Shown piece after piece: positions 2,189 to 16,172 of a stretch of 32,000 nt of DNA; positions within the stretch are counted from its first letter, which is position 1, and each line of letters starts with the position of its first letter. The notes beneath the pieces are model-generated. The model searched no databases and was not told where the DNA came from. It saw nothing but the letters and a program-made list of their open reading frames with translations. The translations under genes were made by a program, and so were the position numbers. Source of the stretch: Candidatus Saccharimonadota bacterium. GTDB taxonomy: Bacteria; Patescibacteriota; Gracilibacteria; UBA1369; 2-02-FULL-48-14. Location: positions 30,001 through 62,000 of the forward strand of contig JBAZVE010000001.1 in assembly GCA_041661045.1 (NCBI GenBank). The letters are read 5' to 3'.

Positions 2189-2252
2189 GTAATGAGGTGA
2201 GGATAACAAAAAAGCGATGCTAGGGTAACTCAGTCCCCGTGGGCATACAAGA

Positions 2253-2675: not shown

Positions 2676-2723
2676 CGTCTTTATTGGACTCTTTTTTTAA
2701 GCGAAAAACAACTTGAAAATATG

Positions 2724-3107: not shown

Positions 3108-3162
3108 GCCTGAATTATAACATAAAATTTATGTTAATGGAAGGGCCTGCCAACTGGGGTTG

Positions 3163-3630
3163 CTAGGATTTTTCTACCTGGTTTAGTTTTCTGGGTTGGT
3201 AGTCACATAATCTTTCAAGCCAAGGCTCTGGTGTATCGCCGTTCTCTTCCGTCTTCCGTCTCAACTCCTCTGCAAGGTCTCTCATACGAGCGGCAAGCTC
3301 ATTTTCGAGGTCCGGTTCCTCCCCTCTTTTGTTCAACTCTCCTGCATACTGAGTGACATCTTCCATATCTTCCAAGGCTCGATCCATGAAGCCATTCCTT
3401 TTAAAAATTTTCGCTCGACGCAATCTATGAGCGATCTCTTCCTTAAGAGGAGCTGCCAGCGGGAAATACACTCTATCCATTTCTGCCGTCCACTGATCTT
3501 CCCACTTATTCAATAGAGCTACACTTTCTTCCGTTAGTTTCCCTGGATCGTCAGGGTCTCTTTTTATAAATCCAATGAAATCATGATCTTCTACTATTTC
3601 GTCATCTGGGGGTTCTGGAGAGGTTTCCAT
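3163..3630 (-). CDS. hypothetical acidic protein (155 aa)
   Basis: Clean ORF, Glu/Asp-rich and predicted helical (METSPEPPDDEIVEDHD...). No motif recognised. Confidence 0.55.
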   Translation of the reverse strand: METSPEPPDDEIVEDHDFIGFIKRDPDDPGKLTEESVALLNKWEDQWTAEMDRVYFPLAAPLKEEIAHRLRRAKIFKRNGFMDRALEDMEDVTQYAGELNKRGEEPDLENELAARMRDLAEELRRKTEENGDTPEPWLERLCDYQPRKLNQVEKS

Positions 3631-3694
3631 GACAATTTAATGCTGAATAGGAATTGTAGCACAAATTGATGCTACATGAAAGGCGGTGGGCATT

Positions 3695-5305
3695 TTAATA
3701 CACCACTTTCAGGTAACACGCCGGGCATAGGATGCTTTGTGAGTTCTGCGAAGTGGTGGCGCTGGGAACAGTTTGGCCACAGTGGGTGCAGGCCACTTCT
3801 TGAAGTCGGTATTCCGGGCGTTTGAGCATGCGGTCGGCATGTCTTTGGTCCGGGTGCCTTTTGGGGAGTGGCAGGTCCATGTTTTTATAAAAAGCGAGTT
3901 CTTGTGGTGTGAGTTTGTAGACTTTTCCCGTGACTTCACAGCGGATTGTATCGGGAACATTGGTGTCTGCCGGCGCGGGCATTTCATAATCAGACCACTT
4001 ATAGCCTTTGGCCAAAGCCTCTTCTCGTGTGAGCGGAAAGTGATCCATGACCAGGGTCTCGTTGTATCCGTAAGGATTGAGTTCGACTGGGAAAAATTCA
4101 CCATACTCCCCCGTCTGCTTCATGTGCTCGATGAGCTTGGCACGGAGGATATGGTAGTCGGCCTCGGAATATTGTTTATTAAAAATACAAAAGCGTTTTT
4201 TCTTGAGTCCGGTGCAGCCAAAGCAGTCGCTGCAACCCGTGACTTGAAAGCAGTATTCCAAGTTGGAATTGTTGGTGGTGCAGGTGGAACAAAACTTTAA
4301 GTTGTAAGCGTTGTCTCCACATCCCGCTGAATGATAGATGAGCTCCGCCTTGCAGCCCCAAGAAGTGTAGTCCATGCAATTCTTGGCATGAAGAGCCACT
4401 TTGATGCAGTAACGACAATCTTCAAGATCCTTGGAATCAAAACAGTGAAAGGCGTTTTTGGAATTGTAGAGATGGTCGCCCAGTACATTTTCATTGTTTT
4501 CGCCTTCGGTAGCTTTGCGGGGCTGAGTTAAAAAGAAGGCTTCGGCACGATGCCTCAATTCCGCAATCCCCTCTGGCGTGTTGAGTTTCATTTTTGCTTT
4601 TTCTTGTTCGTATTCTTCCTTGCTGAGCTGTTTGTTGAAAATCATGTACTGCTTGTGGCGCTGGTTCACCGAGGCGATGCAATCTTTGCAACTCACGCAA
4701 CTTTTAAGGAAGAAGCCGTCTTGGCAGCCGGTGCATTCTTGCGAGAATTTTAAGTTGTAGGATTTTTGACAATCGATGCATTCGTAGGCCAATTCACACT
4801 CGTAACAATTGGTGCAGTCCAGCACATTCTTGCAGTGGTAGATTCGATTTGAAAAAGCACAGTCCTCACTGTAATCGCTTTCAGAAACCAAATAACAATT
4901 TTTTAAATAACCTGTGCAGTTGGTGTATTCGCTATTTTCCAGTGTGCCGCCAATCACAAATAAAGAAAGATGCGGAACCTGATTGAGCAGCTCAGCAAAT
5001 TGTTCAAAAAAAGGCCGATTGAAATCCACTTCACGGCCGTACGACAGCGCATCCCACTCGTCTCCCCACCATGTTTCGTAGTGGTAGACCGGAAAGGGCT
5101 GATTTTCATGATAAGTGGAGAGGATGGTTTTGCCGGAAAAGTCACATTTCCTTTTATAGAGCTTCCGCCCATTTCTTTCCTGAAGCCGCCGAATCAGCCG
5201 GCACTCCGGACACTGCTTTGGCGCAGGCACGCCGATTTGTTCATAAAATTTTTGATCCTCCGGAGCGGGTTCAAAGTCGATTTTACATTGCAAACAGGTG
5301 CTCAT
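3695..5305 (-). CDS. Cys-rich multi-zinc-ribbon protein of unknown function (536 aa)
   Basis: N-terminal CxxC...CPxCR ribbon (CLQCKIDF...QCPECRLIRRL) and C-terminal CTHCG...CPACY. Two internally duplicated Cys-ladder segments each end in YNLKF...IFNKQxSxExY. The overlapping ORFs in other frames are much shorter. Confidence 0.8.
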   Translation of the reverse strand: MSTCLQCKIDFEPAPEDQKFYEQIGVPAPKQCPECRLIRRLQERNGRKLYKRKCDFSGKTILSTYHENQPFPVYHYETWWGDEWDALSYGREVDFNRPFFEQFAELLNQVPHLSLFVIGGTLENSEYTNCTGYLKNCYLVSESDYSEDCAFSNRIYHCKNVLDCTNCYECELAYECIDCQKSYNLKFSQECTGCQDGFFLKSCVSCKDCIASVNQRHKQYMIFNKQLSKEEYEQEKAKMKLNTPEGIAELRHRAEAFFLTQPRKATEGENNENVLGDHLYNSKNAFHCFDSKDLEDCRYCIKVALHAKNCMDYTSWGCKAELIYHSAGCGDNAYNLKFCSTCTTNNSNLEYCFQVTGCSDCFGCTGLKKKRFCIFNKQYSEADYHILRAKLIEHMKQTGEYGEFFPVELNPYGYNETLVMDHFPLTREEALAKGYKWSDYEMPAPADTNVPDTIRCEVTGKVYKLTPQELAFYKNMDLPLPKRHPDQRHADRMLKRPEYRLQEVACTHCGQTVPSATTSQNSQSILCPACYLKVVY

Positions 5306-5374
5306 GGGGAGAGCTTAGCATGGCAATTATTTCCTGAGTAGCAATAAAACGAGGCCGACCATGCGGTCTTTCTC

Positions 5375-5956
5375 TTATGCCGCTACTGAAAATGCACGAT
5401 TATTGTTTGCGGCTCGCCCTGTATCGAAATATTGGGTGCTTGAGTAGCCATAAGCATCGCGATCCCAAGCGCTTCCCCAGCCGTTAGCTCTAACGGCAGC
5501 TTGCGTGTGTTCTCTGCCGTCTAATCCTGTAACAACCCAAGGAATTTCACGCCCCTGCCCATCAAAAAAGGTAAAGCGCCCACCACCATCTGCGTTGGCT
5601 TTGATCACTAGGGAAACTCCGTAATTGCTGACTTGGTCTTCTAGCTGCCCGGAATAGCTGATGTCGGCGGAACTCGGTCCATTGGCCTCAGGTCCAAGCT
5701 GTGGTCCGTGCGTGTGGGCCATAGACCAAGTGGGCGTATGCGGATTGAGCCTCAGTTCTTCTTGAATCTTGGCTCTTGTTTGGTCTCCTACTTCGAACTT
5801 GTTCGTTTTAGGACTATCGCCCAGCCCCAAGCCTACACATCCCTCAACATTAAAAACCGTTCCGTCCATTATTCCACCCAAAAGCAGAGCTCCCGTTTCC
5901 GCTTCTTGATTGCGCATTTGCGCATCACCAATTCGAAGCAAATCCTCAACTGACAT
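5375..5956 (-). CDS. JAB/MPN-like (JAMM motif-like) protein, unknown role
   Basis: The listed ORF starts at 5986. An internal ATG at 5954-5956 is preceded by a perfect SD, AAGGAGGT (reverse complement of 5961-5968), 5 nt after the GGAGG core. Motifs: EAETGALLLGG, then AHTHGPQLGPEANGPSSAD (HxH-x11-SxxD; the canonical JAMM spacing is x7). Confidence 0.5.
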   Translation of the reverse strand: MSVEDLLRIGDAQMRNQEAETGALLLGGIMDGTVFNVEGCVGLGLGDSPKTNKFEVGDQTRAKIQEELRLNPHTPTWSMAHTHGPQLGPEANGPSSADISYSGQLEDQVSNYGVSLVIKANADGGGRFTFFDGQGREIPWVVTGLDGREHTQAAVRANGWGSAWDRDAYGYSSTQYFDTGRAANNNRAFSVAA

Positions 5957-6037
5957 GTGAACCTCCTTTGGTATCGTTCGTTCCATGCTGTCATTTTAAC
6001 ACTTATTTTGGCTTCGGCAAGGGTTTGGGCTAAGCAT

Positions 6038-6066
6038 TTGCTAAGGTCGTCAAAAGGGTGTATAAT
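6038..6066 (+). promoter_or_regulatory. sigma70-like promoter for the 6091-7333 operon
   Basis: TTGCTA (6038-6043), a 17-nt spacer, then TATAAT (6061-6066); 24 nt upstream of the ATG at 6091. Confidence 0.5.
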
Positions 6067-6090
6067 ATTGGATGTATTAAATGAAAATTT

Positions 6091-6378
6091 ATGCTAACAC
6101 TTAATGAAGTGATCCAAGTTGATGGTGGAGACAGACCCCTTCTTCCATCTGAAATTGATGGAGTTTTAGCCGCTGCACTTCCAGAAGACTATTCGGGGCT
6201 GATTGGGCTTCGCAGTTCAGAGTTTAGGGCACGAGTTGGCGATCTAGATTTAGGAGATTTAGTAAGAAAAGCTGAGGCAAATGCAGTAAATTCTGACCAC
6301 TATGAGCCAGGCTCTAACTCTAGTAACGCCGTACTAAGAGCGGTTGCAGCAGTTAGGCGAGACTTCCTCAATGAATAG
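6091..6378 (+). CDS. hypothetical protein (95 aa)
   Basis: ORF directly downstream of the promoter at 6038-6066. No motif recognised. Confidence 0.5.
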   Translation: MLTLNEVIQVDGGDRPLLPSEIDGVLAAALPEDYSGLIGLRSSEFRARVGDLDLGDLVRKAEANAVNSDHYEPGSNSSNAVLRAVAAVRRDFLNE

Positions 6379-6420
6379 GGCTATTTTTGATCGTATTAGG
6401 GTTACTTTTAATTATTTTGT

Positions 6421-6627
6421 ATGGATCGTGTCCCAATAGCCTTGTCTGGGCCTCAAAGATTAGTTTTAGAGGCAATCACCCTATCTCACACGGGGATGCA
6501 ATCCGCTTGGCTTAGACAAAGAACTCTTGATGAATGTGGAGCAACTTTGGGAGACTTACAAACACTATTAGAGGAAGGTTTAGTTGAGCTCAGAGCTGAC
6601 CGTTACTTCGCGACTTCAAAAAAGTAA
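6421..6627 (+). CDS. small hypothetical protein (68 aa), possibly winged-helix-like
   Basis: ORF whose stop lies 4 nt before the methyltransferase ATG. A helix-rich pattern (LVLEAITLSH...LQTLLEEGLVELRADRY) is the only hint of a fold. Confidence 0.4.
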   Translation: MDRVPIALSGPQRLVLEAITLSHTGMQSAWLRQRTLDECGATLGDLQTLLEEGLVELRADRYFATSKK

Positions 6628-6631
6628 ACCT

Positions 6632-7333
6632 ATGAAAGATACTTTTGGGCAAGCCTTGTATGGGTACTGGAAGGGCGATCATAAAACGCCTCATTTCGTT
6701 AGGCGGGAGGATGGCTTTTTAGATGAGACTCCTAATGCTGATTATTTTCGGCCCGAGCTTATGTCCAAGGAGAAAGCTTTGGTCAAATTCGCTCGTGGGA
6801 AGATTTTGGATGTCGGCTCCGGGGCTGGTCGAGCGCTACTCTATTTTGGAAAGAAGGGTTTTGATATTTGTGGAATCGACTTCTCCCCTCTTGCTGTTCG
6901 CGTTTGTAAGGAACGGGGACTAAAGGCTGAGATGAAGGATGTTTTCAAAATGCGAAAAACTTCTGCATACAATACTGTTTTGCTCTTTGGAAACAACATT
7001 GGAATTGGCGGCGATTTGAAAGGAGCCGAGAACTTACTTAAAAAATTGAACACACTTGTCGACAAAAAAGGCCGTGTGCTGCTCACCAGTATGGATGTTA
7101 GCAAGACGGACAATCCAAAGCATAAGGCTTATCACCAAATGAATCTCAAAAGGAGAAAGTATGTGGGTGAGGTGAAAATTCGAGTGGAATACAAGAAAGC
7201 CATTGGAACTTACTTCAAGTGGATTCATCTTGATTCCGAAAAACTTAAGGAACTCGCGGCAAAAACGGGGTGGAAGGTCATTTACCTTAAAGTCACTAAG
7301 GATGGCTCTTACTCGGCGGTTCTGGAGAAGTAG
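6632..7333 (+). CDS. class I SAM-dependent methyltransferase
   Basis: SAM-binding motif I ILDVGSGAGRALLYF followed by DICGIDFS. The start was moved from the listed 6584 to the ATG at 6632 (MKDTFGQ...) to avoid overlap with the upstream ORF. Confidence 0.8.
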   Translation: MKDTFGQALYGYWKGDHKTPHFVRREDGFLDETPNADYFRPELMSKEKALVKFARGKILDVGSGAGRALLYFGKKGFDICGIDFSPLAVRVCKERGLKAEMKDVFKMRKTSAYNTVLLFGNNIGIGGDLKGAENLLKKLNTLVDKKGRVLLTSMDVSKTDNPKHKAYHQMNLKRRKYVGEVKIRVEYKKAIGTYFKWIHLDSEKLKELAAKTGWKVIYLKVTKDGSYSAVLEK

Positions 7334-7389
7334 ACTCTAGAATCGTAGTAGGTCGCACGCGGATAATTTTGAACTTTTCTGATGTCCAC

Positions 7390-7749
7390 CTAAGTACGCA
7401 ATGGAGGCTCTTCTTCACCCTTTGGAAGTACTGGCAATGGTTCTATAGGAGGAGGCGGGAGCACAGGTAATGCCTGACAACATTCACATGAACAACCGAT
7501 TGGATGGCCTGGGCCACAAGGTTCCGATGGATCTACTATCGTGGACTCTTCTAAATTTATTGAGCAGCCTTTCTCCACCCTCTGCGCAAATTCAACCTGC
7601 CAACAAGGAACTCCTTCTTTTGAAAATGGAGTGGGGTCGACTTGAGTTTGAGTTGGCTTTATCCCTTCTTCAGCCAAAACAGGGCTGGAGCTTGCCAGAA
7701 AGATGGATAACATTGTTTCTTTCATCTCTATATTGGTTGATACTGCCAC
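7390..7749 (-). CDS. small Cys/Pro-rich protein, probably secreted
   Basis: Signal-peptide-like MKETMLSIFLASSSPVLA (from the internal Met at 7725), a Cys cluster (PCGPGHPIGCSCECCQ) and a proline-rich tail (LPVLPPPPIEPLPVLP). Confidence 0.45.
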   Translation of the reverse strand: MAVSTNIEMKETMLSIFLASSSPVLAEEGIKPTQTQVDPTPFSKEGVPCWQVEFAQRVEKGCSINLEESTIVDPSEPCGPGHPIGCSCECCQALPVLPPPPIEPLPVLPKGEEEPPLRT

Positions 7750-7793
7750 TCATTTTAACATTAATTGTCGAAAAGTCATCAACCTGTCTACAC

Positions 7794-8639
7794 TCAGCAA
7801 AAAACTGAAATCGCATATCCTTCAAGATAAATCTTCTTAGCGCTTCCAGCTCCTTCCATTCGTACGGTCAAATCCCCCATTCCTTCTAAACCAGGACCAC
7901 AACGGATAAGGAATTCTTGCTGACTGGATCTTAAGTGTTTTTGTAAGTATTCAGCGAGAGCTATGGAGCCCACACCGCAGACCAAATCTTCTTCATCTCG
8001 ATTCGGGAAATGACGCGCGTGAGCATCTAGAGCTTCAGTTTCTAATGCAAAAGGAAACAATCCTGTGATTGGATCCTCATCGGTTGAGTAACGAGTACAA
8101 AATGCTCGAATTGCCTGAAAATCTCTCTGAATTTTAAGCAAATTTTCGAGTGTTACAGGAATCATAAGTTTCATTTTCCCTGGAGCGCCTACGAGTTGAA
8201 TGGGCAGGGACTCAAGAATGTGATCAATATGAAGGATCTCAGCAAGTGCTTCTTTTGGAATTTCCAAATCTCTAAATCCTGGAAGGGACTGAGTTTGAGA
8301 AATTTTGCCATCAGGAAAGCGAGTCGCTTCAATGACTGTTCCTTTTGTGTTCACAAACTTTCCCTCCATCACTTGGCTTTGAGGCGGAAAGGCAAGATGT
8401 GCTGCCGCTAAGGTGGCATGCCCACAAGCGAAAGTTTCAGTCGCCCCGTTTTCATAGAGGAAACGGATTGGAATTGGCTTTTTTCTTGTATCAATAATGG
8501 CTGCTACTGTGCATGCAGACTCTCTCACTAGTCTCATGGCTTCCTCGGAATCAAGATCTGCATCAATAACTAGAGCTGGATTCCCCAACTTTGGATTTTT
8601 TGTGAAGGCCTTTACTGTGGTCGCTTGAATCTGTTGCAT
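7794..8639 (-). CDS. PhzF-family isomerase-like protein
   Basis: 281 aa. N-terminal VKAFTKNPKLGNPALV and overall length and pattern typical of the PhzF/YddE family. No competing ORF. Confidence 0.8.
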   Translation of the reverse strand: MQQIQATTVKAFTKNPKLGNPALVIDADLDSEEAMRLVRESACTVAAIIDTRKKPIPIRFLYENGATETFACGHATLAAAHLAFPPQSQVMEGKFVNTKGTVIEATRFPDGKISQTQSLPGFRDLEIPKEALAEILHIDHILESLPIQLVGAPGKMKLMIPVTLENLLKIQRDFQAIRAFCTRYSTDEDPITGLFPFALETEALDAHARHFPNRDEEDLVCGVGSIALAEYLQKHLRSSQQEFLIRCGPGLEGMGDLTVRMEGAGSAKKIYLEGYAISVFC

Positions 8640-8647
8640 GGAGTGAG

Positions 8648-8675
8648 TTTAGCAGATTTTTCGACATTTAATATC
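8648..8675. repeat. degenerate junction repeat R0
   Basis: tttagcagatttttcgacatttaatatc aligns with ttttagtagattttcgacttatttcttg at 10137-10164. Confidence 0.35.
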
Positions 8676-8693
8676 CACTCGTCTGCGACGAGG

Positions 8694-8707
8694 GTGGTGG
8701 GCCCGGC
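8694..8707. repeat. 14-bp copy of the tRNA(CAU) 3' end
   Basis: gtggtgggcccggc is identical to 17556-17569, which is the 3' end of the tRNA gene on the same strand. Confidence 0.5.
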
Positions 8708-8731
8708 CGTGCAAGAGACGAATTTGATTGA

Positions 8732-8917
8732 CTATTTCCTTAATGCCTCACTTCCTCCTAACGCTTTTTGAAGTCCTAACTGTCTTCTGACTTGATCTAC
8801 TTCACCACCTGTTCTTCCAAGAGCACCTGCCGAAATTATTAATTCAGGGATTCTAGGCTCAGGCTCCCGACTAATCATAGCAGCTAAGCTTTCCAGTCTT
8901 GTTGGCCCTCCTGGCAT
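8732..8917 (-). CDS. small hypothetical protein (61 aa), cassette 1
   Basis: ORF 31 nt downstream of a strong promoter (8949-8978) and bounded by repeat elements. No motif recognised. Confidence 0.4.
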   Translation of the reverse strand: MPGGPTRLESLAAMISREPEPRIPELIISAGALGRTGGEVDQVRRQLGLQKALGGSEALRK

Positions 8918-8948
8918 AATATTTTGGTTAAGTTATTATCAAGGTAAG

Positions 8949-8978
8949 ATATTACATCATTTCTTCACATCCTGTCAA
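8949..8978 (-). promoter_or_regulatory. sigma70-like promoter (minus strand)
   Basis: On the minus strand: TTGACA (reverse complement of 8973-8978), an 18-nt spacer, then TAATAT (reverse complement of 8949-8954). Confidence 0.5.
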
Positions 8979-8990
8979 TATTTGTGCGTG

Positions 8991-9025
8991 TGGTCACACT
9001 AGTCGCTCGACTTATTTTTTGTTGG
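8991..9025. repeat. junction repeat R1
   Basis: tggtcacactagtcgctcgacttattttttgttgg. It ends 1 nt before the stop codon of the 9026-9574 ORF. Confidence 0.8.
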
Positions 9026-9574
9026 TTATGAAGCTGTGGCTCCTCTTGACCCCTGAGCTAATTTCCCTTCTAGGATGGCTAATAATGCCTGCGTTCTCCT
9101 GATGTCACCCGCCATGCTAATCAGGCCCTCGTTGCGTCCACTACTTAATGAAGTACCTTCTTGAAATTCTGGAAGGACCCTCCATGCTCTATATCCCTCA
9201 ACAGTAGCTACTTGCCATCCAGAAGATGCTAAAGGTCTTTGCAGATTAACACCTAGCGTATCTCCCCTACTAATTAGTTCAACCTCCGTCCATGGGAAGT
9301 CCCCGGCGTATGTAGTTTGTACAAGCAAGCGGGTCTGTCCGCCTTCACCCTGTTGACCGTGCTGAGCTAAGAGCCTCTGAGCCCTAGTTCGATTGCTATC
9401 AATAAGCTCTTCCAAACCTCCATTCATGCCATTGCTGCTCTCTAAGAAAGCCTCGTCACCCTTCCTCATTCTACTTTCCTCTTCATCTTCTAAGGCCTCT
9501 GTTGCTTCGCTGTCTAAGAGTCCACCTCCATCATACACTGCTCTGAGCCTAGGGAATGGGGATTCTGTTCTCAT
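9026..9574 (-). CDS. hypothetical protein (182 aa), cassette 2
   Basis: Clean ORF bounded by R1 and R2. No motif recognised. Confidence 0.55.
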   Translation of the reverse strand: MRTESPFPRLRAVYDGGGLLDSEATEALEDEEESRMRKGDEAFLESSNGMNGGLEELIDSNRTRAQRLLAQHGQQGEGGQTRLLVQTTYAGDFPWTEVELISRGDTLGVNLQRPLASSGWQVATVEGYRAWRVLPEFQEGTSLSSGRNEGLISMAGDIRRTQALLAILEGKLAQGSRGATAS

Positions 9575-9626
9575 TTTTAAGGAGTTATTGGTTGGTAGGT
9601 AAACTTACCATACGAAAATTGGATTT

Positions 9627-9673
9627 AGCAAACTATTAAAAATTTAATAGTGGTGGGCCTCGACTTATTTTTC
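9627..9673. repeat. junction R2: exact copy of the tRNA(CAU) flank and 3' end, fused to the repeat core
   Basis: 9631-9659 (aactattaaaaatttaatagtggtgggcc) is identical to 17537-17565. It is followed by the core cctcgacttattttt (9658-9672). Confidence 0.85.
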
Positions 9674-10097
9674 AATAATTATCAAAGCCAGATTCACCAA
9701 AAACAGTTTTCTTGGCAAACCTTAGCACATCTTCAAAAGGAGACATGTTGCTGATACTTAGTCCTTCAACCTTGCAAGCTTTTATACCTCCAATAGAAAG
9801 GCTTATCTGAATGTTAAGAAACTCGGTTTTCTTGAAGCTACAGTTCTCAAAGTTACAGCCAACAAGTGCAGATTCTAAAAAAATACAATTATTGAAAGTG
9901 CAATCATTAAAAATTCCGCTTGCAAAATCCCCTCCAAGAATCAAACAGTTTTCAAAAACTCTACCCATAAAATCGCTGTCCATTACATCTCCACTTCCTA
10001 AGCCTCCTGCATAATTTGTAGTTCTCAAGTCGAAAAAACCAGTGAAAGTTTCTTCACTTCTATAAACCCGATCAAATTCTTCTAAGTTTTTTGTCAT
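9672..10097 (-). CDS. pentapeptide-repeat protein (141 aa), cassette 3
   Basis: Tandem 5-residue periodicity: CTFNN CIFLE SALVG CNFEN CSFKK TEFLN. Confidence 0.75.
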   Translation of the reverse strand: MTKNLEEFDRVYRSEETFTGFFDLRTTNYAGGLGSGDVMDSDFMGRVFENCLILGGDFASGIFNDCTFNNCIFLESALVGCNFENCSFKKTEFLNIQISLSIGGIKACKVEGLSISNMSPFEDVLRFAKKTVFGESGFDNY

Positions 10098-10148
10098 ATT
10101 AAAAAATGCAGTTTTACTTTAGCAAACTTTCTGCGTTTTAGTAGATTT

Positions 10149-10178
10149 TCGACTTATTTCTTGGTAGTGATTCGAGTG
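10149..10178. repeat. junction repeat R3
   Basis: tcgacttatttcttggtagtgattcgagtg. The right arm GTGATTCGAGTG is shared with R5 and R8. Confidence 0.7.
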
Positions 10179-10224
10179 AAAGTTTGAACTGGGGGCTAAT
10201 GTAGACAGGAGTATAGTGCTTTGA

Positions 10225-10253
10225 TTGACATGGCTTACTGTATGTAGTATTGT
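10225..10253 (+). promoter_or_regulatory. cassette-internal promoter
   Basis: TTGACA (10225-10230), a 17-nt spacer, then TATTGT (10248-10253). The same elements are conserved at 15429-15457 in the paralogous cassette. Confidence 0.55.
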
Positions 10254-10274
10254 ATACCACTGTAACAGATTGAT

Positions 10275-10910
10275 ATGCCTATATCATCAAAAGTTGAAGA
10301 GGGCGTCGACTATGAGCCAGGGTTCCCTGAAGATTTACGCATTGAAGAGCTCTTCCTATTGGTAGATTCTTGGACAGAGGCTCTTCGTAAGGCGTTGATC
10401 TCTTTAGGTTACAATCCCTTTACAGGAACCAGAGAGCAAAAACCTGAGTACGCAGATCACTTTGAAGGAAGAACTGTTTTGCCAGATGGTAGAGAAGTAA
10501 GGGCCTATTTTATGACTGTTGGAAAGTTCCATGATGGTCAAAGGGTAGCAAATGACCGCTTGGAACTCAGTATAACTCCGGTAAGAGAAGATCAGCATGG
10601 CATCAGCACTGTTTCGATGGGTGAAAATCTTAGATTAGAAGAGGTTAGACTCCTCTTGGGTATACCAAGCCATCACACTAAATGGGTGACCCCTTTCTAT
10701 GCCAGATCCAGGGATACAAAGGATCCTAGAGATTATACCTTTGACGAGCAAAGAGTTTATATCCAGTATGCTCGTTTGCTAAAACAAATCTTAGATCTGC
10801 ATTTCCAACATTCTCTGGGAAGAGTAGCAGAAGACTCTACAGATGTGACAAGCGCGACCGTGACACCGCGTCTTTTAGAAGCTTCAGAAGTTATAGAGGA
10901 AAAAAATTAA
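10275..10910 (+). CDS. hypothetical protein (211 aa), cassette 4; paralog of 15479-16102
   Basis: MPISSKVEEGVDYEPGFPEDL... aligns end to end with the 207-aa product of 15479-16102. No motif recognised. Confidence 0.7.
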   Translation: MPISSKVEEGVDYEPGFPEDLRIEELFLLVDSWTEALRKALISLGYNPFTGTREQKPEYADHFEGRTVLPDGREVRAYFMTVGKFHDGQRVANDRLELSITPVREDQHGISTVSMGENLRLEEVRLLLGIPSHHTKWVTPFYARSRDTKDPRDYTFDEQRVYIQYARLLKQILDLHFQHSLGRVAEDSTDVTSATVTPRLLEASEVIEEKN

Positions 10911-10925
10911 GCAGCCTCAAGTTTT

Positions 10926-10957
10926 GTCACAATTTCCCTCGACTTATTTTTTGGTGG
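10926..10957. repeat. junction repeat R4
   Basis: gtcacaatttccctcgacttattttttggtgg. It supplies the last codons and the TAA stop of the 10944-11456 ORF. Confidence 0.75.
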
Positions 10958-11456
10958 CTCTCAATAGAGTAATCCCTACATCTATTATGTAGACTATGCT
11001 CAGGACTGACAGCCCCAAAGTTAGAAGACCCATTGTATCTATCATTTCAACTCTTAAGTTATCCCAATTTGTGTTGCCTGCTTCCATTAGGCCTATGATT
11101 GTAGAATTGAAATCATTTTTTATAAAAAGCAAGGTGGGCCAAGCACCAATAAGGATTCCTGAGAATAGATAAAGCCATTTTTGTGAAGAATTACTGGATG
11201 TATTGTTTTTTGTTTTTCCTGTTACAAAAAGCCAGCGTTTTTTGCCGTCCAAATGGTCCATAGAAGCGTGGAGCATCTCATACTGACCTGTTTGTAACTG
11301 ATTATTCAAATTCTCAAAGCTATCACCCCCCTCATGGCCGATACAATATGTTTGAATCCCATAAATAATTCGACTCTTGTGCCAAGAAAGATAAAGGACC
11401 AAAAGAGTGATGCAGTTCACAATCAAAGCGATAAGACTAAGAATGGAATCAGGCAT
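10944..11456 (-). CDS. small integral membrane protein (170 aa, ~3 TM), cassette 5
   Basis: Hydrophobic segments ILSLIALIVNCITLLVLYLSW, WLYLFSGILIGAWPTLLFI and LLTLGLSVLSIVYIIDVGITLL. Confidence 0.65.
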   Translation of the reverse strand: MPDSILSLIALIVNCITLLVLYLSWHKSRIIYGIQTYCIGHEGGDSFENLNNQLQTGQYEMLHASMDHLDGKKRWLFVTGKTKNNTSSNSSQKWLYLFSGILIGAWPTLLFIKNDFNSTIIGLMEAGNTNWDNLRVEMIDTMGLLTLGLSVLSIVYIIDVGITLLRATKK

Positions 11457-11487
11457 GTAAGAACTGTGTTAGTAGATAAGCCTATAA

Positions 11488-11496
11488 ATTATACCA
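11488..11496 (-). promoter_or_regulatory. extended -10 element TGgTATAAT (minus strand)
   Basis: The reverse complement of attatacca is TGGTATAAT, 31 nt upstream of the ATG at 11456. The same attataccag string recurs at 12437-12446. Confidence 0.45.
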
Positions 11497-11528
11497 GTGC
11501 TATAGAGTCTTGAAATACATCTTGGAAT

Positions 11529-11590
11529 GCTGCACTTTGTGCAGTATGGTCACACTAGTTCCTCGATTTATTTTTTGGTGGTGATTCGAG
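11529..11590. repeat. junction repeat R5 (hairpin module, core and right arm)
   Basis: gCTGCACtttGTGCAGtatggtcacactagttcctcgatttattttttggtggtgattcgag. Confidence 0.85.
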
Positions 11591-11597
11591 TAAAAAA

Positions 11598-12410
11598 TCA
11601 TAAGATCAGTTCTCCTTCCGTATTAAAAAGAGCTACATTTTCAAAAACCGATCTTATAAACGCTACCTCATCTTTGTCTTCAGCTAATTTTGGTGGCAAA
11701 ATAATTCCTGATATAAAGTTCCCAGGTATACCGCACAAAATTGAAGATAACCTTTGCCCTTCGGGTGAATTCGGGTCATACGGCAATTGATTTATAATCC
11801 CTTTCATTTCTTCTCTCCCCTCAGCGTTATATGGATCCATATGTAGAAGTTCTTTCAATTCAGCAATGTTAGGGTCAATTAGAATTGCTACTTGATCATT
11901 CGTTCTACTGTTTTTGTTTGGCAAAAAAGTGCGTTCCATTTTTGAACTTTTCATTATAAGAGAGCCATCAGGACGCCGTTTTTCATCTGGCACATGGTAC
12001 CAATCCACATAATCCTTTACCGAGGTATCGTGCGGTATTTTATAAAAATCTGCACAGAAATGTGTTTCACTATCTTCAGGTATACCTATCAATTCTCCTG
12101 ATAACACCCCATTTGCTTGCAGAGCTTGGATTTTCTCTCTTGAATAAGATGTTCCGTGAACAAGTGTTCCCGCTACAAGTGGAGTTAAGCCAGCTTGAAT
12201 ACGTATTTGCAAAGGATTTGGAACCTTTAAGGTACTTAATCTTTGAAATAGACCCCATTGTTTTCTTACCTTTGTAAGCTCTTCATCGTTCAACTCCTTC
12301 TCGAGAATCATAGTATCTGGAAGAGGCAATCCAGCTGCCTCCTTCACTTCTGGACTAGTTGCTTCTCTTGCCACCTCCTCTTCAGGTTTTTCTAGGTCTA
12401 AATCTCTCAT
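11598..12410 (-). CDS. hypothetical protein (270 aa), cassette 6; weak H-Y-E ADP-ribosyltransferase-like pattern
   Basis: Clean ORF. LVHGTSYSREKIQALQANGVL resembles the HG[ST]...I...G[LV] NAD-binding motif of the PARP, diphtheria toxin and Tpt1 fold. HFCADFY and DEVAFI are possible second and third motifs. Confidence 0.6.
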   Translation of the reverse strand: MRDLDLEKPEEEVAREATSPEVKEAAGLPLPDTMILEKELNDEELTKVRKQWGLFQRLSTLKVPNPLQIRIQAGLTPLVAGTLVHGTSYSREKIQALQANGVLSGELIGIPEDSETHFCADFYKIPHDTSVKDYVDWYHVPDEKRRPDGSLIMKSSKMERTFLPNKNSRTNDQVAILIDPNIAELKELLHMDPYNAEGREEMKGIINQLPYDPNSPEGQRLSSILCGIPGNFISGIILPPKLAEDKDEVAFIRSVFENVALFNTEGELIL

Positions 12411-12436
12411 TAATTTATCTGATTATAAATCAGCTC

Positions 12437-12445
12437 ATTATACCA
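12437..12445 (-). promoter_or_regulatory. extended -10 element TGgTATAAT (minus strand)
   Basis: The reverse complement of attatacca is TGGTATAAT, 26 nt upstream of the ATG at 12410. Confidence 0.45.
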
Positions 12446-12510
12446 GATTTGCAAAAAACTAACCAGTGATGAGGTTTTAGCAAGACATTTCTGTACAGTA
12501 AAAACCTTGA

Positions 12511-12547
12511 ATGGTCACACTAGTTCCTCGACTTATTTTTTTGGCGG
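12511..12547. repeat. junction repeat R6
   Basis: atggtcacactagttcctcgacttatttttttggcgg. An 8-bp palindrome, ctgtacag, lies at 12491-12498, where R5 and R7 carry their hairpin. Confidence 0.85.
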
Positions 12548-12578
12548 TAGTACGGATGAAAATCGCTCAATAGACTAA

Positions 12579-13763
12579 TCAGACTGACTTACTGGCTACT
12601 TTTTTACGCATGATTGGCAAGACTATCAAGAAGCCTACGAGCATTAATGCCGTCAAAACGATGAGGGGGATTTTTTGACTCTCCAAGGAATCGCTGGACC
12701 ATCCGTATAAAATGGGCCCTATGATCACGGCCGCCTGAGAAACAAAAGAGTAAAAACCGAATTCCGTGCCTGAATTTTCTGGCTTTACCACTCGAGCATA
12801 GTGGGCTCTTAGTATCGACTGGCTATTCCCTACCGCTAACCCACCCAATATTGAAATCAAAATGACCGTTGGTGCGTAGGGTGGGAGCAAAAGAAGCACA
12901 AAGGCCACCAGCATACAGATCATGGAGCTTGAAAATATAGTCGCCATTTTCCCTTTCGCAGCTAAGCGACCGCCTATTAGCGTAGCCGGAAAGGCTACCA
13001 GTTGAATGAGCAAAAGCATGTATCCGATTTGCATTGAAGTCAGTCCCAGTTCTTTTGAGCAATACAAAGCAAAGAAGAGTATGAAAACGGTGATGCACTC
13101 GCTGATGATCCAAAACCCCAAAAGGAACTGTATTTTTTGTTTACGAGTTAAAGTTACTGATTCCTCGTAGCTCGCCGGTAAAGCACTGAAAGACTTCAGA
13201 CCTTTGAGTGCTAATCCTGAGAAAAATGTATAAAAAATGCTGACGCTCAAAAAAACAGGCAGTGAAAATTCCGAACTTTGGCTTTGTATGATGAGTACAA
13301 TGAGCAGACTTAGGATTCCTCCGACATAACCGAAACCCCACGCGAAACCGCTGTAGCGATAGGATTCGGGCCCTTGAGAAATATGAGGCAATACAGAATC
13401 TGAAAGCGATAGTGAGGCAATGAAAATGGCCTGCGTGAGGATAAAAAGTGGAGCAACCAGTGTCTGGGAAAATGAAGTGGCTAGCCCCAACACAATCATT
13501 CCCACGGAGCTTAGAATGATTGTCCACTTTAAGAATCTATATTTTCCATATTTATCAGAAATTTTTCCCAACCACAAAGCTAGTAAGATCCCTAAAAAGG
13601 TCGCGATGGCATTTGCCGTCCCCCACGCCGCAAGCGGATATCCAAAATTGATGAGTACGGTCGCAAAATAAGCTGGGAGAAGAAACGCCCCATAGGAAAG
13701 TATGTAGCTGGAATTTGCAAAATCGTAATAAGCCCAACTCCGTACTATGCTGTTTTTGTTCAT
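12579..13763 (-). CDS. MFS transporter (Atg22/UMF1-like), cassette 7
   Basis: 394 aa and highly hydrophobic, with about 10-12 TM segments. The N-terminal WAYYDFANSSY signature is typical of the UMF1/Atg22 MFS subfamily. Confidence 0.8.
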   Translation of the reverse strand: MNKNSIVRSWAYYDFANSSYILSYGAFLLPAYFATVLINFGYPLAAWGTANAIATFLGILLALWLGKISDKYGKYRFLKWTIILSSVGMIVLGLATSFSQTLVAPLFILTQAIFIASLSLSDSVLPHISQGPESYRYSGFAWGFGYVGGILSLLIVLIIQSQSSEFSLPVFLSVSIFYTFFSGLALKGLKSFSALPASYEESVTLTRKQKIQFLLGFWIISECITVFILFFALYCSKELGLTSMQIGYMLLLIQLVAFPATLIGGRLAAKGKMATIFSSSMICMLVAFVLLLLPPYAPTVILISILGGLAVGNSQSILRAHYARVVKPENSGTEFGFYSFVSQAAVIIGPILYGWSSDSLESQKIPLIVLTALMLVGFLIVLPIMRKKVASKSV

Positions 13764-14578
13764 GGTGCCAGGTTAAACTGTTGTGTATAAACCTCTGGCC
13801 TTCTTAGCTTAAAATAAGGCTTTTGATCCCTAGTTCTAGTGGCTAGTTCCATTTCAATATCTGCATAAACTATCTGTTCTTGATCGTTCGCCTTTACGAT
13901 CACACCACCGTTTGGATCTACAACAATGGATTCCCCACAAAAGTCCATTTTCCCTTCAAGGCCCACTCGATTGCACATCGCAATGAAAACAGAATTTTGC
14001 ATTGCAGGGACTCGAAGTTCCCATTCAAACATTTCAAGAGGTTCGTCCTTGGTATTGGCCGTTGGGATAATGATGATTTGTGCTCCCTGTAAAGCACACG
14101 AGCGAATGCTTTCTGGGTAGTGCCTATCAAAACAAATCACCACACCCACTTTTCCAATGGCCGTGTTGTATACCTTAAAGCCGCTTTCAGATGGGTTGTA
14201 GTAATCCTGCTCGTAGAAACCCTCTGCTTGAACAATATGAACCATTTTAGAAATACCTAAAATTTCCCCATTTGAATCGATCAATGGAGAGGCATCAAAC
14301 TTATCCGCGCCTTCGTTTAGGTAAAAATTTGGCACTGCCACCATCTTCAGCTCTTTACACTTTTCCTGTAGTGATTTAATCACCTGGTCTTCGATTCCTA
14401 TTTCGTAGGATGAGGTGTCTTTGCCTTTATACTGAGGAAAGAATGGGTAAAACTGGAGTTCTGGGAAACAAATGAGGTTTGCTCCATTTTTAGCTGCTTC
14501 CTCCATTGTTGAGATAGCTTTTTCAATATTTCCTTGAATGTTCTCTCCGAGTTTTAGTTGAGCTAAAGCGATTTTCAT
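13760..14578 (-). CDS. carbon-nitrogen hydrolase (nitrilase superfamily), cassette 7
   Basis: Candidate Glu-Lys-Cys triad contexts CFPELQ, ...HYRK-like region and VVICFDRHYPE. Overlaps the downstream MFS gene by 4 nt (ATGA), indicating an operon. Confidence 0.85.
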   Translation of the reverse strand: MKIALAQLKLGENIQGNIEKAISTMEEAAKNGANLICFPELQFYPFFPQYKGKDTSSYEIGIEDQVIKSLQEKCKELKMVAVPNFYLNEGADKFDASPLIDSNGEILGISKMVHIVQAEGFYEQDYYNPSESGFKVYNTAIGKVGVVICFDRHYPESIRSCALQGAQIIIIPTANTKDEPLEMFEWELRVPAMQNSVFIAMCNRVGLEGKMDFCGESIVVDPNGGVIVKANDQEQIVYADIEMELATRTRDQKPYFKLRRPEVYTQQFNLAP

Positions 14579-14628
14579 GATTCAAAAATACCAAAAACTA
14601 AGGAATTTGCCAGACCAAGATTTTTTAA

Positions 14629-14678
14629 GCTGCACTTCGTGCAGTATGGTCACACAAGTCCCTCGATTTATTTAATTG
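14629..14678. repeat. junction repeat R7 (hairpin module and core)
   Basis: gCTGCACttcGTGCAGtatggtcacacaagtccctcgatttatttaattg. Confidence 0.8.
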
Positions 14679-14725
14679 TTATCAAATTAAAGTTAATGTA
14701 TAATAGTTATAACTAATTAATAACT
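14676..14725 (+). promoter_or_regulatory. phd-doc promoter with palindromic operator candidates
   Basis: TTGTTA (14676-14681), a 17-nt spacer, then TATAAT (14699-14704). This is followed by the perfect 10-bp palindrome AGTTATAACT (14705-14714) and a further ATAACT (14720-14725) abutting the ATG. Confidence 0.5.
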
Positions 14726-14968
14726 ATGTTCTATAAACTTATAAAAGTAGGCAATTCAGTCGGAGTCACTTTACCAAGAAAACTACTTGACCTGATGCAG
14801 CTTGAGCAGGGTGAAGATGTTATGATCGAACCCAATATGGAAACTCGAACTATAGTCATCAAACCTGTTTCTGTGGCGAAAGAACAGGTGAATAAATCGG
14901 TCATTGAAGGGACCGCAAAGTTTATCAAACGCTATCCAAAAGCACTTAAAAACTTGGCTGGAAAATGA
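14726..14968 (+). CDS. AbrB/SpoVT-fold antitoxin (Phd-type partner of Doc), cassette 8
   Basis: KVGNSVGVTLPRKLLDLMQLEQGEDV is a swapped-hairpin AbrB/MazE motif. Overlaps the doc gene by 4 nt. Confidence 0.8.
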   Translation: MFYKLIKVGNSVGVTLPRKLLDLMQLEQGEDVMIEPNMETRTIVIKPVSVAKEQVNKSVIEGTAKFIKRYPKALKNLAGK

Positions 14969-15348
14969 AATACTTGAGCGTTCAAGATCTGATCTATATC
15001 AACCAAGCTGTGGTGGATGCATCTGGTGGCACTATTGGCGTGCGTGATGTGGGCCTAATAGACTCCGCAGTGAATAGGCCACGCGCCACTTTTGGAGACG
15101 ATGACTTGTATCCAAGCTTATTTGATAAAGCTGCTGCACTTTTTCATTCAGTAATTTTCAACCATGCTTTCTTAGATGGGAACAAAAGAACGGCCGTTGC
15201 TTCAGCTGCCCAACTTTTATACCTCAATGGATTTGAGCTTATCACCAGCGAAAAAGAACTTGAATCTTTTACCATGAAAATCGTTGACGAAAGATTGGGG
15301 TTGGATGAAATTGCAAAGTGGCTAGAAAAATATTCTATTGAATGTTAG
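14965..15348 (+). CDS. doc: Doc (death-on-curing) Fic-fold toxin
   Basis: The Fic/Doc active-site motif HAFLDGNKRTA is present. 127 aa, typical Doc length. Confidence 0.9.
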   Translation: MKYLSVQDLIYINQAVVDASGGTIGVRDVGLIDSAVNRPRATFGDDDLYPSLFDKAAALFHSVIFNHAFLDGNKRTAVASAAQLLYLNGFELITSEKELESFTMKIVDERLGLDEIAKWLEKYSIEC

Positions 15349-15382
15349 ACCATCAACTTATTTTTTAGTGGTTATTCGAGTG
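15348..15382. repeat. junction repeat R8
   Basis: gaccatcaacttattttttagtggttattcgagtg. The ~100 nt that follow are conserved with 10179-10274. Confidence 0.65.
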
Positions 15383-15428
15383 AAAATTTGGACTGAGGAC
15401 TAATGTAGACAGGAGTATGGCGCTTTGG

Positions 15429-15457
15429 TTGACATGGCTTACCATATGTAGTATTGT
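15429..15457 (+). promoter_or_regulatory. cassette-internal promoter (paralog of 10225-10253)
   Basis: TTGACA (15429-15434), a 17-nt spacer, then TATTGT (15452-15457). Confidence 0.55.
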
Positions 15458-15478
15458 ATGCCACTGTAACAGATCAAT

Positions 15479-16102
15479 ATGCCTATATCATCAAAAGCTG
15501 AAGAGGGCGTCGACTATAAACTAGGGTTTCCTGAAGATTTATCCATTAAAGAGCTCATCCCGTTGGTAGATTCTTGGACAGAGGCTCTTCGTGAGGCATT
15601 GGTATCTTTAGGTCACAATCCCTTCACTGGATCACGAGAGCAAAGCCCTGAGTATCCTGATCACTTTGAAGGAAGAACTGTTTTGCCAGATGGTAAAACA
15701 ATAAGTGCCTATCTTGTGAGCCATTCAAAGTTCCATGATGCTGAACGGGTGGCGCGTGACCGCTTGGAACTCAGTATAACTCCAGCAAGAGAAGACCAGT
15801 ATGGCATCTTCACTGTTTCGAGGGGTGAAAGGCTTAGATTACATGAGGTTCGAATCCTCTTGGGTAAACCAAGCCGTCCCACTAAATGGATGCCCTCTGT
15901 CTTTCTTGGGCTTATAAGGAATCGTAGTGATTATGAGGAGGAAACAGCTTATCTTCAGTATGCTCGTGCGCTAAAACAAATCTTAGATCTGCATTTCCAA
16001 AGTTCCCTCGAAAGATCAGAAGGAGCCTCTACAGAAGTGACAACGGCGGACATTACGCTGGGTCTTTTAGAAGCTTCAGAAGTTGGAGTGGGGGAAAAAT
16101 AA
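15479..16102 (+). CDS. hypothetical protein (207 aa), cassette 9; paralog of 10275-10910
   Basis: MPISSKAEEGVDYKLGFPEDL... is collinear with the 211-aa paralog. Confidence 0.7.
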   Translation: MPISSKAEEGVDYKLGFPEDLSIKELIPLVDSWTEALREALVSLGHNPFTGSREQSPEYPDHFEGRTVLPDGKTISAYLVSHSKFHDAERVARDRLELSITPAREDQYGIFTVSRGERLRLHEVRILLGKPSRPTKWMPSVFLGLIRNRSDYEEETAYLQYARALKQILDLHFQSSLERSEGASTEVTTADITLGLLEASEVGVGEK

Positions 16103-16115
16103 GTAGCCTGAAATT

Positions 16116-16157
16116 TGGCCACACCAGTCCGTGACTTATTTTTTGGTGGTTATCAAG
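16116..16157. repeat. junction repeat R9
   Basis: tggccacaccagtccgtgacttattttttggtggttatcaag. Confidence 0.75.
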
Positions 16158-16172
16158 ACAAGCATTTAGTTT

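Follow-up and report, generated by a model that had tools for sequence, protein, structure and literature searches.

The stretch between positions 8694 and 17556 of the window (the whole 32,000-nucleotide piece of DNA analysed here) is probably a gene-capture hotspot that grew as one site-specific insertion followed another at the 3' end of a tRNA-Met(CAU) gene. The array spans about 8.9 kb. Followed outward from the tRNA it runs tRNA, F, cassette, P-F, cassette and so on to a last P, where P and F are the two parts of a repeated junction unit; beyond this come a remnant, the displaced ancestral tRNA end with its native hairpin, and phzF. The evidence observed directly is the anatomy of the array, the conservation of its junctions, an empty site in a relative, recombinase elements bounded by the same nine bases of the tRNA, and turnover of cassettes at the tRNA end.

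A first-pass annotation of this DNA had pointed to two displaced copies of the tRNA end and proposed that they are attachment scars. Comparison of the window with itself bears out both copies. Positions 9631-9659 match 17537-17565 exactly over 29 nt, that is, the 9 nt of the tRNA-Met 3' end (17557-17565) plus 20 nt of downstream flank (17537-17556); a repeat finder lengthens the match to 36 nt at 92% identity (family D9), and the chance expectation for an exact 29-mer in 32 kb is none. The 29-nt indel proposed between 17504-17547 and 9627-9640 is correct as read, the former consisting of agcaaact, cccccaacttttccgtactttctcgaact and attaaaa, and 9627-9641 reading agcaaactattaaaa. The second copy, a 14-mer at 8694-8707, equals 17556-17569 exactly (13 nt of tRNA and one flank nucleotide) and now lies 8.85 kb away. 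It is the sole extra copy in the window, with no others found when up to two mismatches are allowed; taken alone it is moderately unlikely, at roughly 0.03 by our estimate for any 14-nt piece of the tRNA region. The Logan assembly of run SRR18595301, which is independent of the source assembly, contains a contig (L002, equivalent to window 2174-10484) that carries the stretches 8640-8760, 8950-9060 and 9560-9760 exactly, so the junctions located there are not an artefact of a single assembly. Rfam matches in the window are two tRNAs and nothing else.

The count of two scars from self-comparison proved too low. The 29-mer belongs to a repeat family of ten junction units, all intergenic and on one strand, which lie within 8979-17559 and delimit nine cassettes (Table 1). 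They were located with a profile built from the units of relatives and applied to the whole 32-kb window; outside that interval the profile finds no P/F unit, members of the 29-mer family included, and within this window and the four GTDB genomes with the exact P pattern the repeat is not dispersed in the manner of REP or MITE sequences. The profile itself puts unit 3 at 10142-10175 and unit 5 at 11532-11589, and next to the tRNA it detects a half unit at 17504-17559. Each unit consists of a 45-nt core, P (TGGTCACACTAGTTCC followed directly by TCGACTTATTTTTTGGTGG), and a T-rich flank, F (TAGCAAACTTTT...GAACTTTTT), which in some units is extended by a palindrome, ACTATTAAAAATTTAATAGT. A complete unit is visible in the related locus L003, with F as TAGCAAACTTTTCCGACTTTTTATACTTTTTGAACT, at times the palindrome ATTAAAAATTTTAATAGT, and then P as TGGTCACACTAGTTCC followed directly by TCGACTTATTTTTTGGTGGTTATTCGA; the palindromic module found in the flank of the 29-mer is present in four of the eight L003 units. 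The repeat family thus accounts for the 20 flank bases within the 29-mer, and the tRNA-derived part of the copy is TGGTGGGCC only.

Table 1. Features of the array and its surroundings, from the distal end to the tRNA gene.
Feature	Position	Strand	Remarks
Native 3'-flank hairpin of the ancestral tRNA-Met end	8675-8694	minus	stem CTCGTC/GACGAG; homology to the L024 hairpin
Displaced ancestral tRNA-Met 3' end	8694-8707	minus	oldest scar, outer limit of the insertion zone; exact match and L024 context
Presumed remnant of the first inserted element	8708-8978		271 nt; 61-aa ORF at 8732-8917 (minus)
Unit 1, distal terminal	8979-9030	plus	P without F; core 8991-9025 TGGTCACACTAGTCGCTCGACTTATTTTTTGTTGG; nhmmer E=1.2e-9, profile positions 36-81
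Cassette 9	9026-9574	minus	182-aa orphan protein; GC 0.48
Unit 2	9622-9674	plus	copy reported in the first-pass annotation
Cassette 8	9672-10097	minus	pentapeptide-repeat protein; GC 0.34
Unit 3	10120-10175	plus	F start TAGCAAACT, then degenerate P
Cassette 7	10275-10910	plus	211-aa orphan, paralogue of cassette 2; own TTGACA-17-TATTGT promoter
Unit 4	10926-10959	plus	P, left part degenerate
Cassette 6	10944-11456	minus	170-aa membrane protein; stop codon within P
Unit 5	11529-11589	plus	GC hairpin replaces F, then P
Cassette 5	11598-12410	minus	270-aa orphan protein
Unit 6	12488-12552	plus	P; shares a 30-nt stretch at 100% identity with units of L003, L005 and L008
Cassette 4	12579-14578	minus	MFS transporter (12579-13763) and CN-hydrolase/nitrilase (13760-14578)
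Unit 7	14633-14680	plus	GC hairpin, then P
Cassette 3	14726-15348	plus	Doc-partner antitoxin and Doc (death-on-curing) toxin
Unit 8	15346-15379	plus	P, right half only
Cassette 2	15479-16102	plus	207-aa paralogue of cassette 7
Unit 9	16114-16154	plus	P
Cassette 1, tRNA-proximal	16173-17486	minus	437-aa zinc-ribbon protein; GC 0.35
Tenth unit, proximal	17503-17556	plus	full-length F (CAGCAAACT...GAACT plus palindrome ATTAAAAATTTAATAG), abuts the tRNA 3' end
tRNA-Met(CAT), intact	17557-17633	minus	anchor and insertion site; ARAGORN, Rfam

In unit 2 a short F (TAGCAAACT plus the palindrome) takes up 9626-9650, TGGTGGGCC takes up 9651-9659, and the P arm TCGACTTATTTTT takes up 9660-9672. An alignment of 25 units from nine genomes has TGGTGGGCC in place of TGGTCACACTAGTTCC in this one unit; the remaining units read TGGTCACAC(T/A)AGT(T/C)CC, in some cases decayed, and then the arm TCGACTTATTTTTT. 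At the copy at 9631-9659, and at no other unit junction, the displaced piece retains the genuine terminal 9 nt of the tRNA. In the window, eight junctions out of ten have just TGGT in common with the tRNA end, and reading these as tRNA scars therefore depends on their position and family membership. At the tRNA end of the array the tRNA's own 3' end stands where P would, and the unit profile detects no gradient of decay in unit quality from the tRNA outward.

The cassettes are 0.45-2.1 kb in size, with one or two genes each. Their GC content ranges from 0.34 to 0.48, with flanking core genes at 0.47-0.49, and drops at unit 2 from 0.48 in cassette 9 to 0.34 in cassette 8. Cassettes 2 and 7 are duplicates, their units included (repeat families D1 and D2). 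After searches of Pfam, PADLOC, PHROGs and NCBIfam most cassette proteins remain orphans, and the same searches detect no recombinase in the array or in any ORF of the 32-kb window. The 437-aa protein of cassette 1 was considered as a hidden recombinase and rejected: its AlphaFold model is confident (pLDDT 89.5) and has no recombinase-like PDB match, the best match (E=0.15) being confined to the zinc ribbon. Plasmid matches to 8500-18000 were not found, nor was any Pfam or PHROG match, or homologue in the related loci, for the remnant at 8708-8978. The closest homologue of the 437-aa protein sits in an unrelated defence-like island.

Arrays of this kind occur in eight related Peribacteria or Peregrinibacteria genomes and hold from one to at least eight cassettes. 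The exact P pattern is found in four GTDB MAGs (uncultured Candidatus Peribacteria), at one locus each. In the fetched DNA, tRNA-Met(CAT) lies within 0.3-1.5 kb at three of these four loci; at the remaining locus, L003, at least eight cassettes are densely arrayed and the fetched 8 kb is tRNA-less. Homologues of SufC were then the means by which the same neighbourhood was fetched from relatives. tRNA-Met is directly upstream of sufC in the five relatives whose loci cover both genes, and there the array, 3' of the tRNA, is bordered by tRNA-Met and sufC in one direction and by variable or conserved genes in the other. The distal end of an array consists of P, alone or with a short remainder of F (window 8979, L005 1758, L008, L026 8578, L003 2902), and the tRNA end is F only (window 17503, L004 955, L005 3235, L006/L112, L008, L026 9218); L111, in which the proximal cassette abuts the tRNA without F, is the exception. 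With one exception, the related loci are known from metagenome assemblies, in which such repeats can be mis-assembled; L023 is a 1.34-Mb contig (CP064962.1). A scan of viral contigs for the P pattern gave no match. A looser F pattern gave 75 matches there, all of which fail the unit profile and are therefore attributed to chance, and of 16 stretches returned by a metagenome scan only L008 holds a true unit.

The first-pass annotation had suggested looking in related genomes for an empty site, and L024 (78% SufC identity) provides one. It has the tRNA-Met and no units, and the tRNA is joined at once to a hairpin (CACTCGGCTATGCCGAGGG followed directly by TGGTGGGCC). Window 8675-8707, which reads CCACTCGTCTGCGACGAGGG followed directly by TGGTGGGCCCGGC, is homologous to this hairpin, with a compensatory stem change from T-A to G-C. 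Since the native flank in L024 matches that of the 14-mer, the latter is a displaced tRNA end: on this homology 8694-8707 is the ancestral tRNA-Met end with its native flank, and L024 represents the empty-site state.

Array length and content vary between these genomes. Cassettes number none in L024, one in L008 and in L026, two in L005, three in L112 (three genes), about six in L111 (about ten genes), at least eight in L003, and nine in the window. The cargo in relatives includes GNAT acetyltransferase, pentapeptide proteins, N6/N4 DNA methylase, SAM methyltransferases, flavin reductase, kinase, Asp/Glu racemase and a Fic/Doc pair. One cassette, with the N6_N4 DNA methylase, is internal in L003 and L023 and tRNA-proximal in L005. 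The pentapeptide cassette is common to the window and L003, where cassette 8 has two homologues, and the membrane-protein cassette to the window and L004, where the homologue of cassette 6 is tRNA-proximal. As judged from these comparisons, we count the recurrence of a cassette at differing array positions as support for cassette mobility. The core DNA of L111 and L112 is about 80% identical and their distal cassettes are common to both, while the tRNA-proximal ones are wholly different, from which it follows that turnover takes place at the tRNA end.

Several relatives carry recombinase elements at this same tRNA. In L023 a 5.75-kb element lies between tRNA-Met and an older P/F array and codes for a SMODS/AGS_C protein as well as for a large serine recombinase (LSR) of 527 aa, the latter at 7890-9473; the element is bounded by TGGTGGGCC at 3695 and 9452, and F precedes the displaced copy. 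An LSR element in L031 is bounded by the same 9-mer at 7484 and 11548, with a second, nested scar of 18 nt at 6465. These recombinases belong to one clade, whose genes end within the 3' end of a tRNA in L023, L034 and L031-33 (tRNA-Met) and in L029 (tRNA-Arg); as homologues of the L023 LSR, those of L034, L031-33 and L029 are 45-63% identical. An integrase is thus found beside the tRNA in L023, L031 and L034, and not in the array of the window. The right limit of identity, immediately after GGGCC, is the same in the LSR elements and at window 9651-9659, and nothing else speaks as strongly for 9651-9659 being a true scar of recombination. The enzyme that moves the cassettes may be a tRNA-targeting LSR. 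The left arms of the LSR elements (TAATGCC..., TGTTGCC...) are unlike the P arm, which counts against the LSR of these relatives as that enzyme and leaves it at most a candidate; among its best 120 matches no close homologue could be assigned to the source genome. A 10-mer shared by window 8708 and the end of the L023 LSR gene (CGTGCAAGAG) was tried as an LSR remnant and set aside as chance-level, with no tblastx support.

The reading of both copies as attachment scars is supported by these results. Both behave as displaced tRNA-Met 3' ends, the LSR elements of L023 and L031 are flanked by the same 9 nt, L024 has the empty site, and arrays vary in length; one correction is that, of the 29-mer, the 20 flank bases belong to the repeat family and TGGTGGGCC alone to the tRNA. 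Likewise, the suggestion of at least two successive insertions was right as to serial insertion and far too modest as to number, given ten junction units and the ancestral scar.

In the mechanism we propose, the target would be the boundary between tRNA end and flank, and the incoming circular cassette would bear P joined to F. Each cassette would bring the conserved 45-nt P end, usually the T-rich F end, and no recombinase. Recombination within or beside TGGT...GGGCC, which comprises the ACCA end and the acceptor stem's 3' strand, would yield the order tRNA, new F, cassette, P, old flank: the tRNA would be kept intact and gain the new F as its flank, and P would join the previous flank. The tRNA-plus-F target would then be restored for the next insertion, with older cassettes pushed outward. 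An exchange whose product keeps the tRNA, the tRNA-plus-F target and the P-F junctions would leave exactly the anatomy observed. For unit 2, the incoming segment would have carried a site composed of F + TGGTGGGCC + TCGACTT, such as could belong to a block cut out of a sister array, from the tRNA-proximal site to one of the internal units. Because unit 2 coincides with the step in GC content, the last event may have delivered several cassettes. On this view the cassettes would be non-autonomous and would move like integron cassettes, as cis-mobilisable units that depend on a recombinase provided in trans.

That same step in GC content, which falls precisely at unit 2 (block mean 0.395), invites another account that we consider unlikely: that 9660-17536 entered once as a classical 7.9-kb island, with 29-bp attP/attB identity, and that the inner repeats are its cargo. 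The perfect 29-nt identity suggests a recent event, no unit junction besides unit 2 has the tRNA's own 9 nt, and excision of a block from a sister array would be expected to give F + TGGTGGGCC + TCGACTT. However, the interval is a mosaic of eight cassettes without an integrase, and its GC content is uneven (0.34-0.44). The unit family also occurs outside it, at 8979-9030, and relatives have lone cassettes bounded by the same units. A single island would account at most for the latest event and not for the whole structure.

The junction units themselves have properties that bear on what they do. P cores are 83-97% identical across genomes, whereas suf operons are about 74% and common cassette genes 66-82% identical; P is therefore constrained or recently exchanged. 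P sits downstream of genes in either orientation. F terminates in TGCTAnnnT, and in six units its boundary lies 10-11 nt from the ATG of the adjacent minus-strand cassette gene, a spacing that suggests an extended -10 promoter and leaderless mRNAs. F may thus be an outward extended -10 promoter for leaderless cassette genes; a generic promoter and terminator scan gave no enrichment over shuffles. The palindrome following the CCA end occupies the place of the native hairpin in L024, which suggests that the F palindrome has taken over from that hairpin. Folding z-scores of the units run from -2.1 to +0.7 and are not significant, the sole stem being the optional AT palindrome. The att sites of large serine recombinases are about 40-50 bp long and imperfectly dyad-symmetric, with a 2-bp crossover at the centre. 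The units appear to be without the symmetry that core sites for serine or tyrosine recombinases should have, and by inspection the arms flanking TGGT are T-rich direct, not inverted, repeats. Also on inspection, P was rejected as a dif/Xer-like site (no dyad symmetry), as an IS200/IS605-type end (subterminal hairpin missing) and as the decayed 3' end of another tRNA (implausible acceptor stem).

Slightly less probable than a single island is the explanation that the units are expression modules, spread and homogenised by duplication, homologous recombination and gene conversion, the 29-mer identity then being a short gene-conversion tract from the tRNA-proximal copy. The position of the TGCTAnnnT box relative to cassette start codons fits this, as do the lack of a recombinase in cis and the paralogy of cassettes 2 and 7, and units of 45-100 nt at 85-97% identity suffice for homologous exchange. 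Homologous recombination between units surely does contribute, as cassettes 2 and 7 were duplicated with their units. It is unable, however, to make the first tRNA/F and P/chromosome junctions, and in most of the genomes compared these fall at TGGT in one common register. There is, moreover, one locus per genome, adjacent to the same tRNA wherever the fetched DNA has the tRNA; the ends of the arrays are polar, P-only against F-only; and P is better conserved than coding DNA even though it lies downstream of genes in both orientations. Repeated insertion at the tRNA end is the reading that we prefer, although the missing recombinase, the units' apparent want of dyad symmetry and of hairpins, the junctions with TGGT only, the even unit quality along the array and the negative scan of viral contigs count against it.

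It is very improbable that the array is an integron-type array without integrase (CALIN) with the units as attC sites, despite mostly single-gene cassettes, polar insertion at one end, and integron-like cargo (toxin-antitoxin here; acetyltransferase, methyltransferases and small enzymes in relatives). The folding scores contradict the defining attC structure, RYYYAAC...GTTRRRY core and inverse-core boxes are missing from the 25-unit alignment, no IntI is found in the window or beside any related array, and three of the nine cassettes lie on the opposite strand with their own promoters. The array is not a member of the integron/CALIN family. Finally, chance or assembly error is hardly credible: TGGTGGGCC does have a chance copy at 31064 and nearly all of the related loci are metagenomic, but the 29-nt match is exact, an independent assembly agrees, and eight further genomes, which stem from different samples, show this architecture too.

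It would appear that this tRNA-Met is a lineage-wide slot in which accessory genes are stacked singly between highly conserved junctions, its cargo including a toxin-antitoxin pair, methyltransferases, an acetyltransferase, transporters and many orphans. Within the literature collection that was text-searched, no description of the locus was found, and the genome paper on Peribacter riflensis leaves it unmentioned. The genomes of CPR bacteria are tiny, and both the mobile elements of this group and the ways in which it acquires genes have been poorly documented. A possible though tentative extension is that P/F is the site of an undescribed integron-like capture system in Peribacteria, with a recombinase acting in trans on the CCA end of tRNA-Met. 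The tRNA end would then play the part of attI and the asymmetric, non-hairpin 45-nt site that of attC, with every junction bringing a promoter for a leaderless cassette gene. If P is a true recombination site, it would constitute a compact, programmable-looking cassette platform distinct from integrons and would show which genes make up the flexible pool in these organisms. The P motif can serve as a practical annotation marker for the variable region of Peribacteria.

Among known systems the array resembles segments of the CIME type (ICESt1/ICESt3) and the SCC and pseudo-SCC elements at rlmH, which are recombinase-less, have att-type ends and form tandem stacks at a conserved gene's 3' end, with a related element presumably supplying the recombinase that moves them. 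The corresponding feature here is the set of ten same-strand conserved units bounding nine recombinase-less cassettes; unlike in CIMEs and SCC, the sizes are far smaller, and no cognate autonomous element with P-type ends was found. With integrons the array has in common its polarity, its small and mostly single-gene cassettes, its repeated site, its one fixed growth end and its miscellaneous accessory or toxin-antitoxin cargo. It differs in having neither IntI nor an attC hairpin, in a fixed end that is a tRNA 3' end and not attI, and in an apparent promoter at each junction, where integrons have one common Pc.

The tycheposons of Prochlorococcus are integrase-bearing elements that target a few tRNAs, including tRNA-Met(cat) and tRNA-Ala(ggc); their islands grow by successive integration, accumulate partial tRNAs and degraded elements, and bring niche and defence cargo into a streamlined genome (bioRxiv 10.1101/2020.12.28.424599). 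They are autonomous: they encode an integrase, in most cases a tyrosine recombinase, and sometimes a replication module, and they leave partial-tRNA repeats (bioRxiv 10.1101/2020.12.28.424599). The logic here is similar, and we also count the two target tRNAs as alike, but this array has a conserved P/F repeat that is not tRNA-derived and cassettes without mobility genes.

The closest described case is that of the ssrA islands of Dehalococcoides, which lie in tandem at the tmRNA gene with 20-bp 3'-end repeats and the CcrB-like LSR DsiB (PMC3146451). About 85 bp of extra conservation surrounds each repeat there, including an adjoining motif that is not part of the RNA gene; the integrase is an LSR adjoining the RNA gene, with older material farther out; and 15 islands without an integration module are interpreted as cis-mobilisable (PMC3146451, which also cites the CIME concept). 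In both systems insertions stand in tandem downstream of a single small RNA gene, with repeats of that gene's 3' end in direct orientation as their boundaries and extra conservation around each repeat; both also have older material farther from the gene, and recombinase-less segments. The Dehalococcoides islands, however, are about 10-30 kb, as opposed to single genes of 0.45-2.1 kb here; their repeat is 20 bp, where most junctions here retain TGGT only; and the present array has no recombinase within it, has tRNA-Met as its target, and belongs to a CPR host with a 1.3-Mb genome. A gene-capture hotspot at a tRNA end is a known kind of structure, and this is a miniature, integrase-less form of it, distinct in its single-gene recombinase-less miniaturisation, in having a P/F junction in place of a tRNA-derived repeat, and in its CPR host.

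The nine small cassettes stacked at the 3' end of tRNA-Met(CAT) may not mark the full former extent of the variable zone. A SAM-methyltransferase gene lies left of phzF, that is, beyond the displaced original tRNA end that forms the ancestral scar, and its counterpart in L003, a related locus with an array of at least eight cassettes, is a bona fide array cassette. An apparent decayed copy of the junction repeat found between cassettes, ttttgaacttttctgatgtccacctaagt, comes after the gene; the profile search of the window with that repeat did not detect it. Together, the cassette homology and the apparent decayed repeat suggest that the variable zone may once have extended past the scar towards tRNA-Ala. 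A small orphan protein adjoins tRNA-Ala itself, and its L003 homologue (57% over 49 aa) sits just beyond the distal end of that array.

Coordinates of features in the window and in related loci (L numbers)
Feature	Position	Strand	Remark
tRNA-Ala(GGC)/tRNA-Met(CAT) shared stretch	window 2163-2203 and 17608-17648	same strand	41 nt, 98% identity
Small orphan protein adjoining tRNA-Ala	window 2724-3107	minus	homologue at L003 1885-2031
SAM-methyltransferase gene left of phzF	window 6584-7333		82% nt identity to L003 array cassette 4886-5604
Apparent decayed junction repeat	window 7368-7400		
Paralogous orphan-protein cassettes, 211 aa and 207 aa	window 10142-10964 and 15346-16156		78-86% nt identity
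437-aa tRNA-proximal protein	window 16173-17486	minus	
Group I intron in tRNA-Met	L026 9320-9508; L031 11611-11847; L110 start		Rfam RF00028, 65-71 bits
Large serine recombinase ORFs, one clade	L023 7890-9473; L029 10001-11581; L031 10001-11569; L034 1704-3284		
sufB with intein	L026 10783-13326		

Within the array, the duplication that produced the two paralogous cassettes spans the junction repeat and a strong TTGACA-17-TATTGT promoter as well as the genes, which are encoded on the strand opposite to the majority of cassettes; their orphan products have no family match in any library searched. The 437-aa protein nearest the tRNA belongs to a small family (about 30 members) of sporadic distribution, one member being in Dehalobacterium, that shares invariant CxxC...CxxC residues and a Y-D-Q / P-S-H-E-S set. 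Its AlphaFold model is confident (pLDDT 89.5, pTM 0.87) and, zinc ribbon aside, matches nothing in the PDB. The closest homologue (52% identity), in the locus L117, shares its defence-like island with Fic and a large helicase; a QRPTase gene is split by the island.

The stretch shared by tRNA-Ala and tRNA-Met, which lie 15.4 kb apart, takes in an identical 15-nt 5' leader (TCCTCACCTCATTAC, read on the tRNA strand). In L024, where tRNA-Met carries no array, the two leaders are unlike each other. This pairing of identity here and difference there suggests that the two genes have recently undergone conversion or recombined with each other, or else share a promoter element. Both Logan contigs end within the repeat. 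Five independent Logan assemblies (L113-L116 and L001), from the window species and one related species, all stop at or inside the tRNA-Met gene, as they would if the sequence on the array side were repetitive or polymorphic in the populations sampled.

The window tRNA-Met gene is intron-free; in several relatives a group I intron interrupts the anticodon loop of its orthologue, and because of this split ARAGORN overlooks the gene. In L026, sufB contains an intein that includes a LAGLIDADG endonuclease (product 847 aa, versus 469 aa in the window). Finally, large serine recombinases of a single clade are encoded in elements at tRNA-Met (L023, L031, L034) or tRNA-Arg (L029), each with the final ~20 nt of its ORF inside the 3' end of the target tRNA, an arrangement by which the recombinase C-terminus is predicted to differ between the integrated and excised forms.
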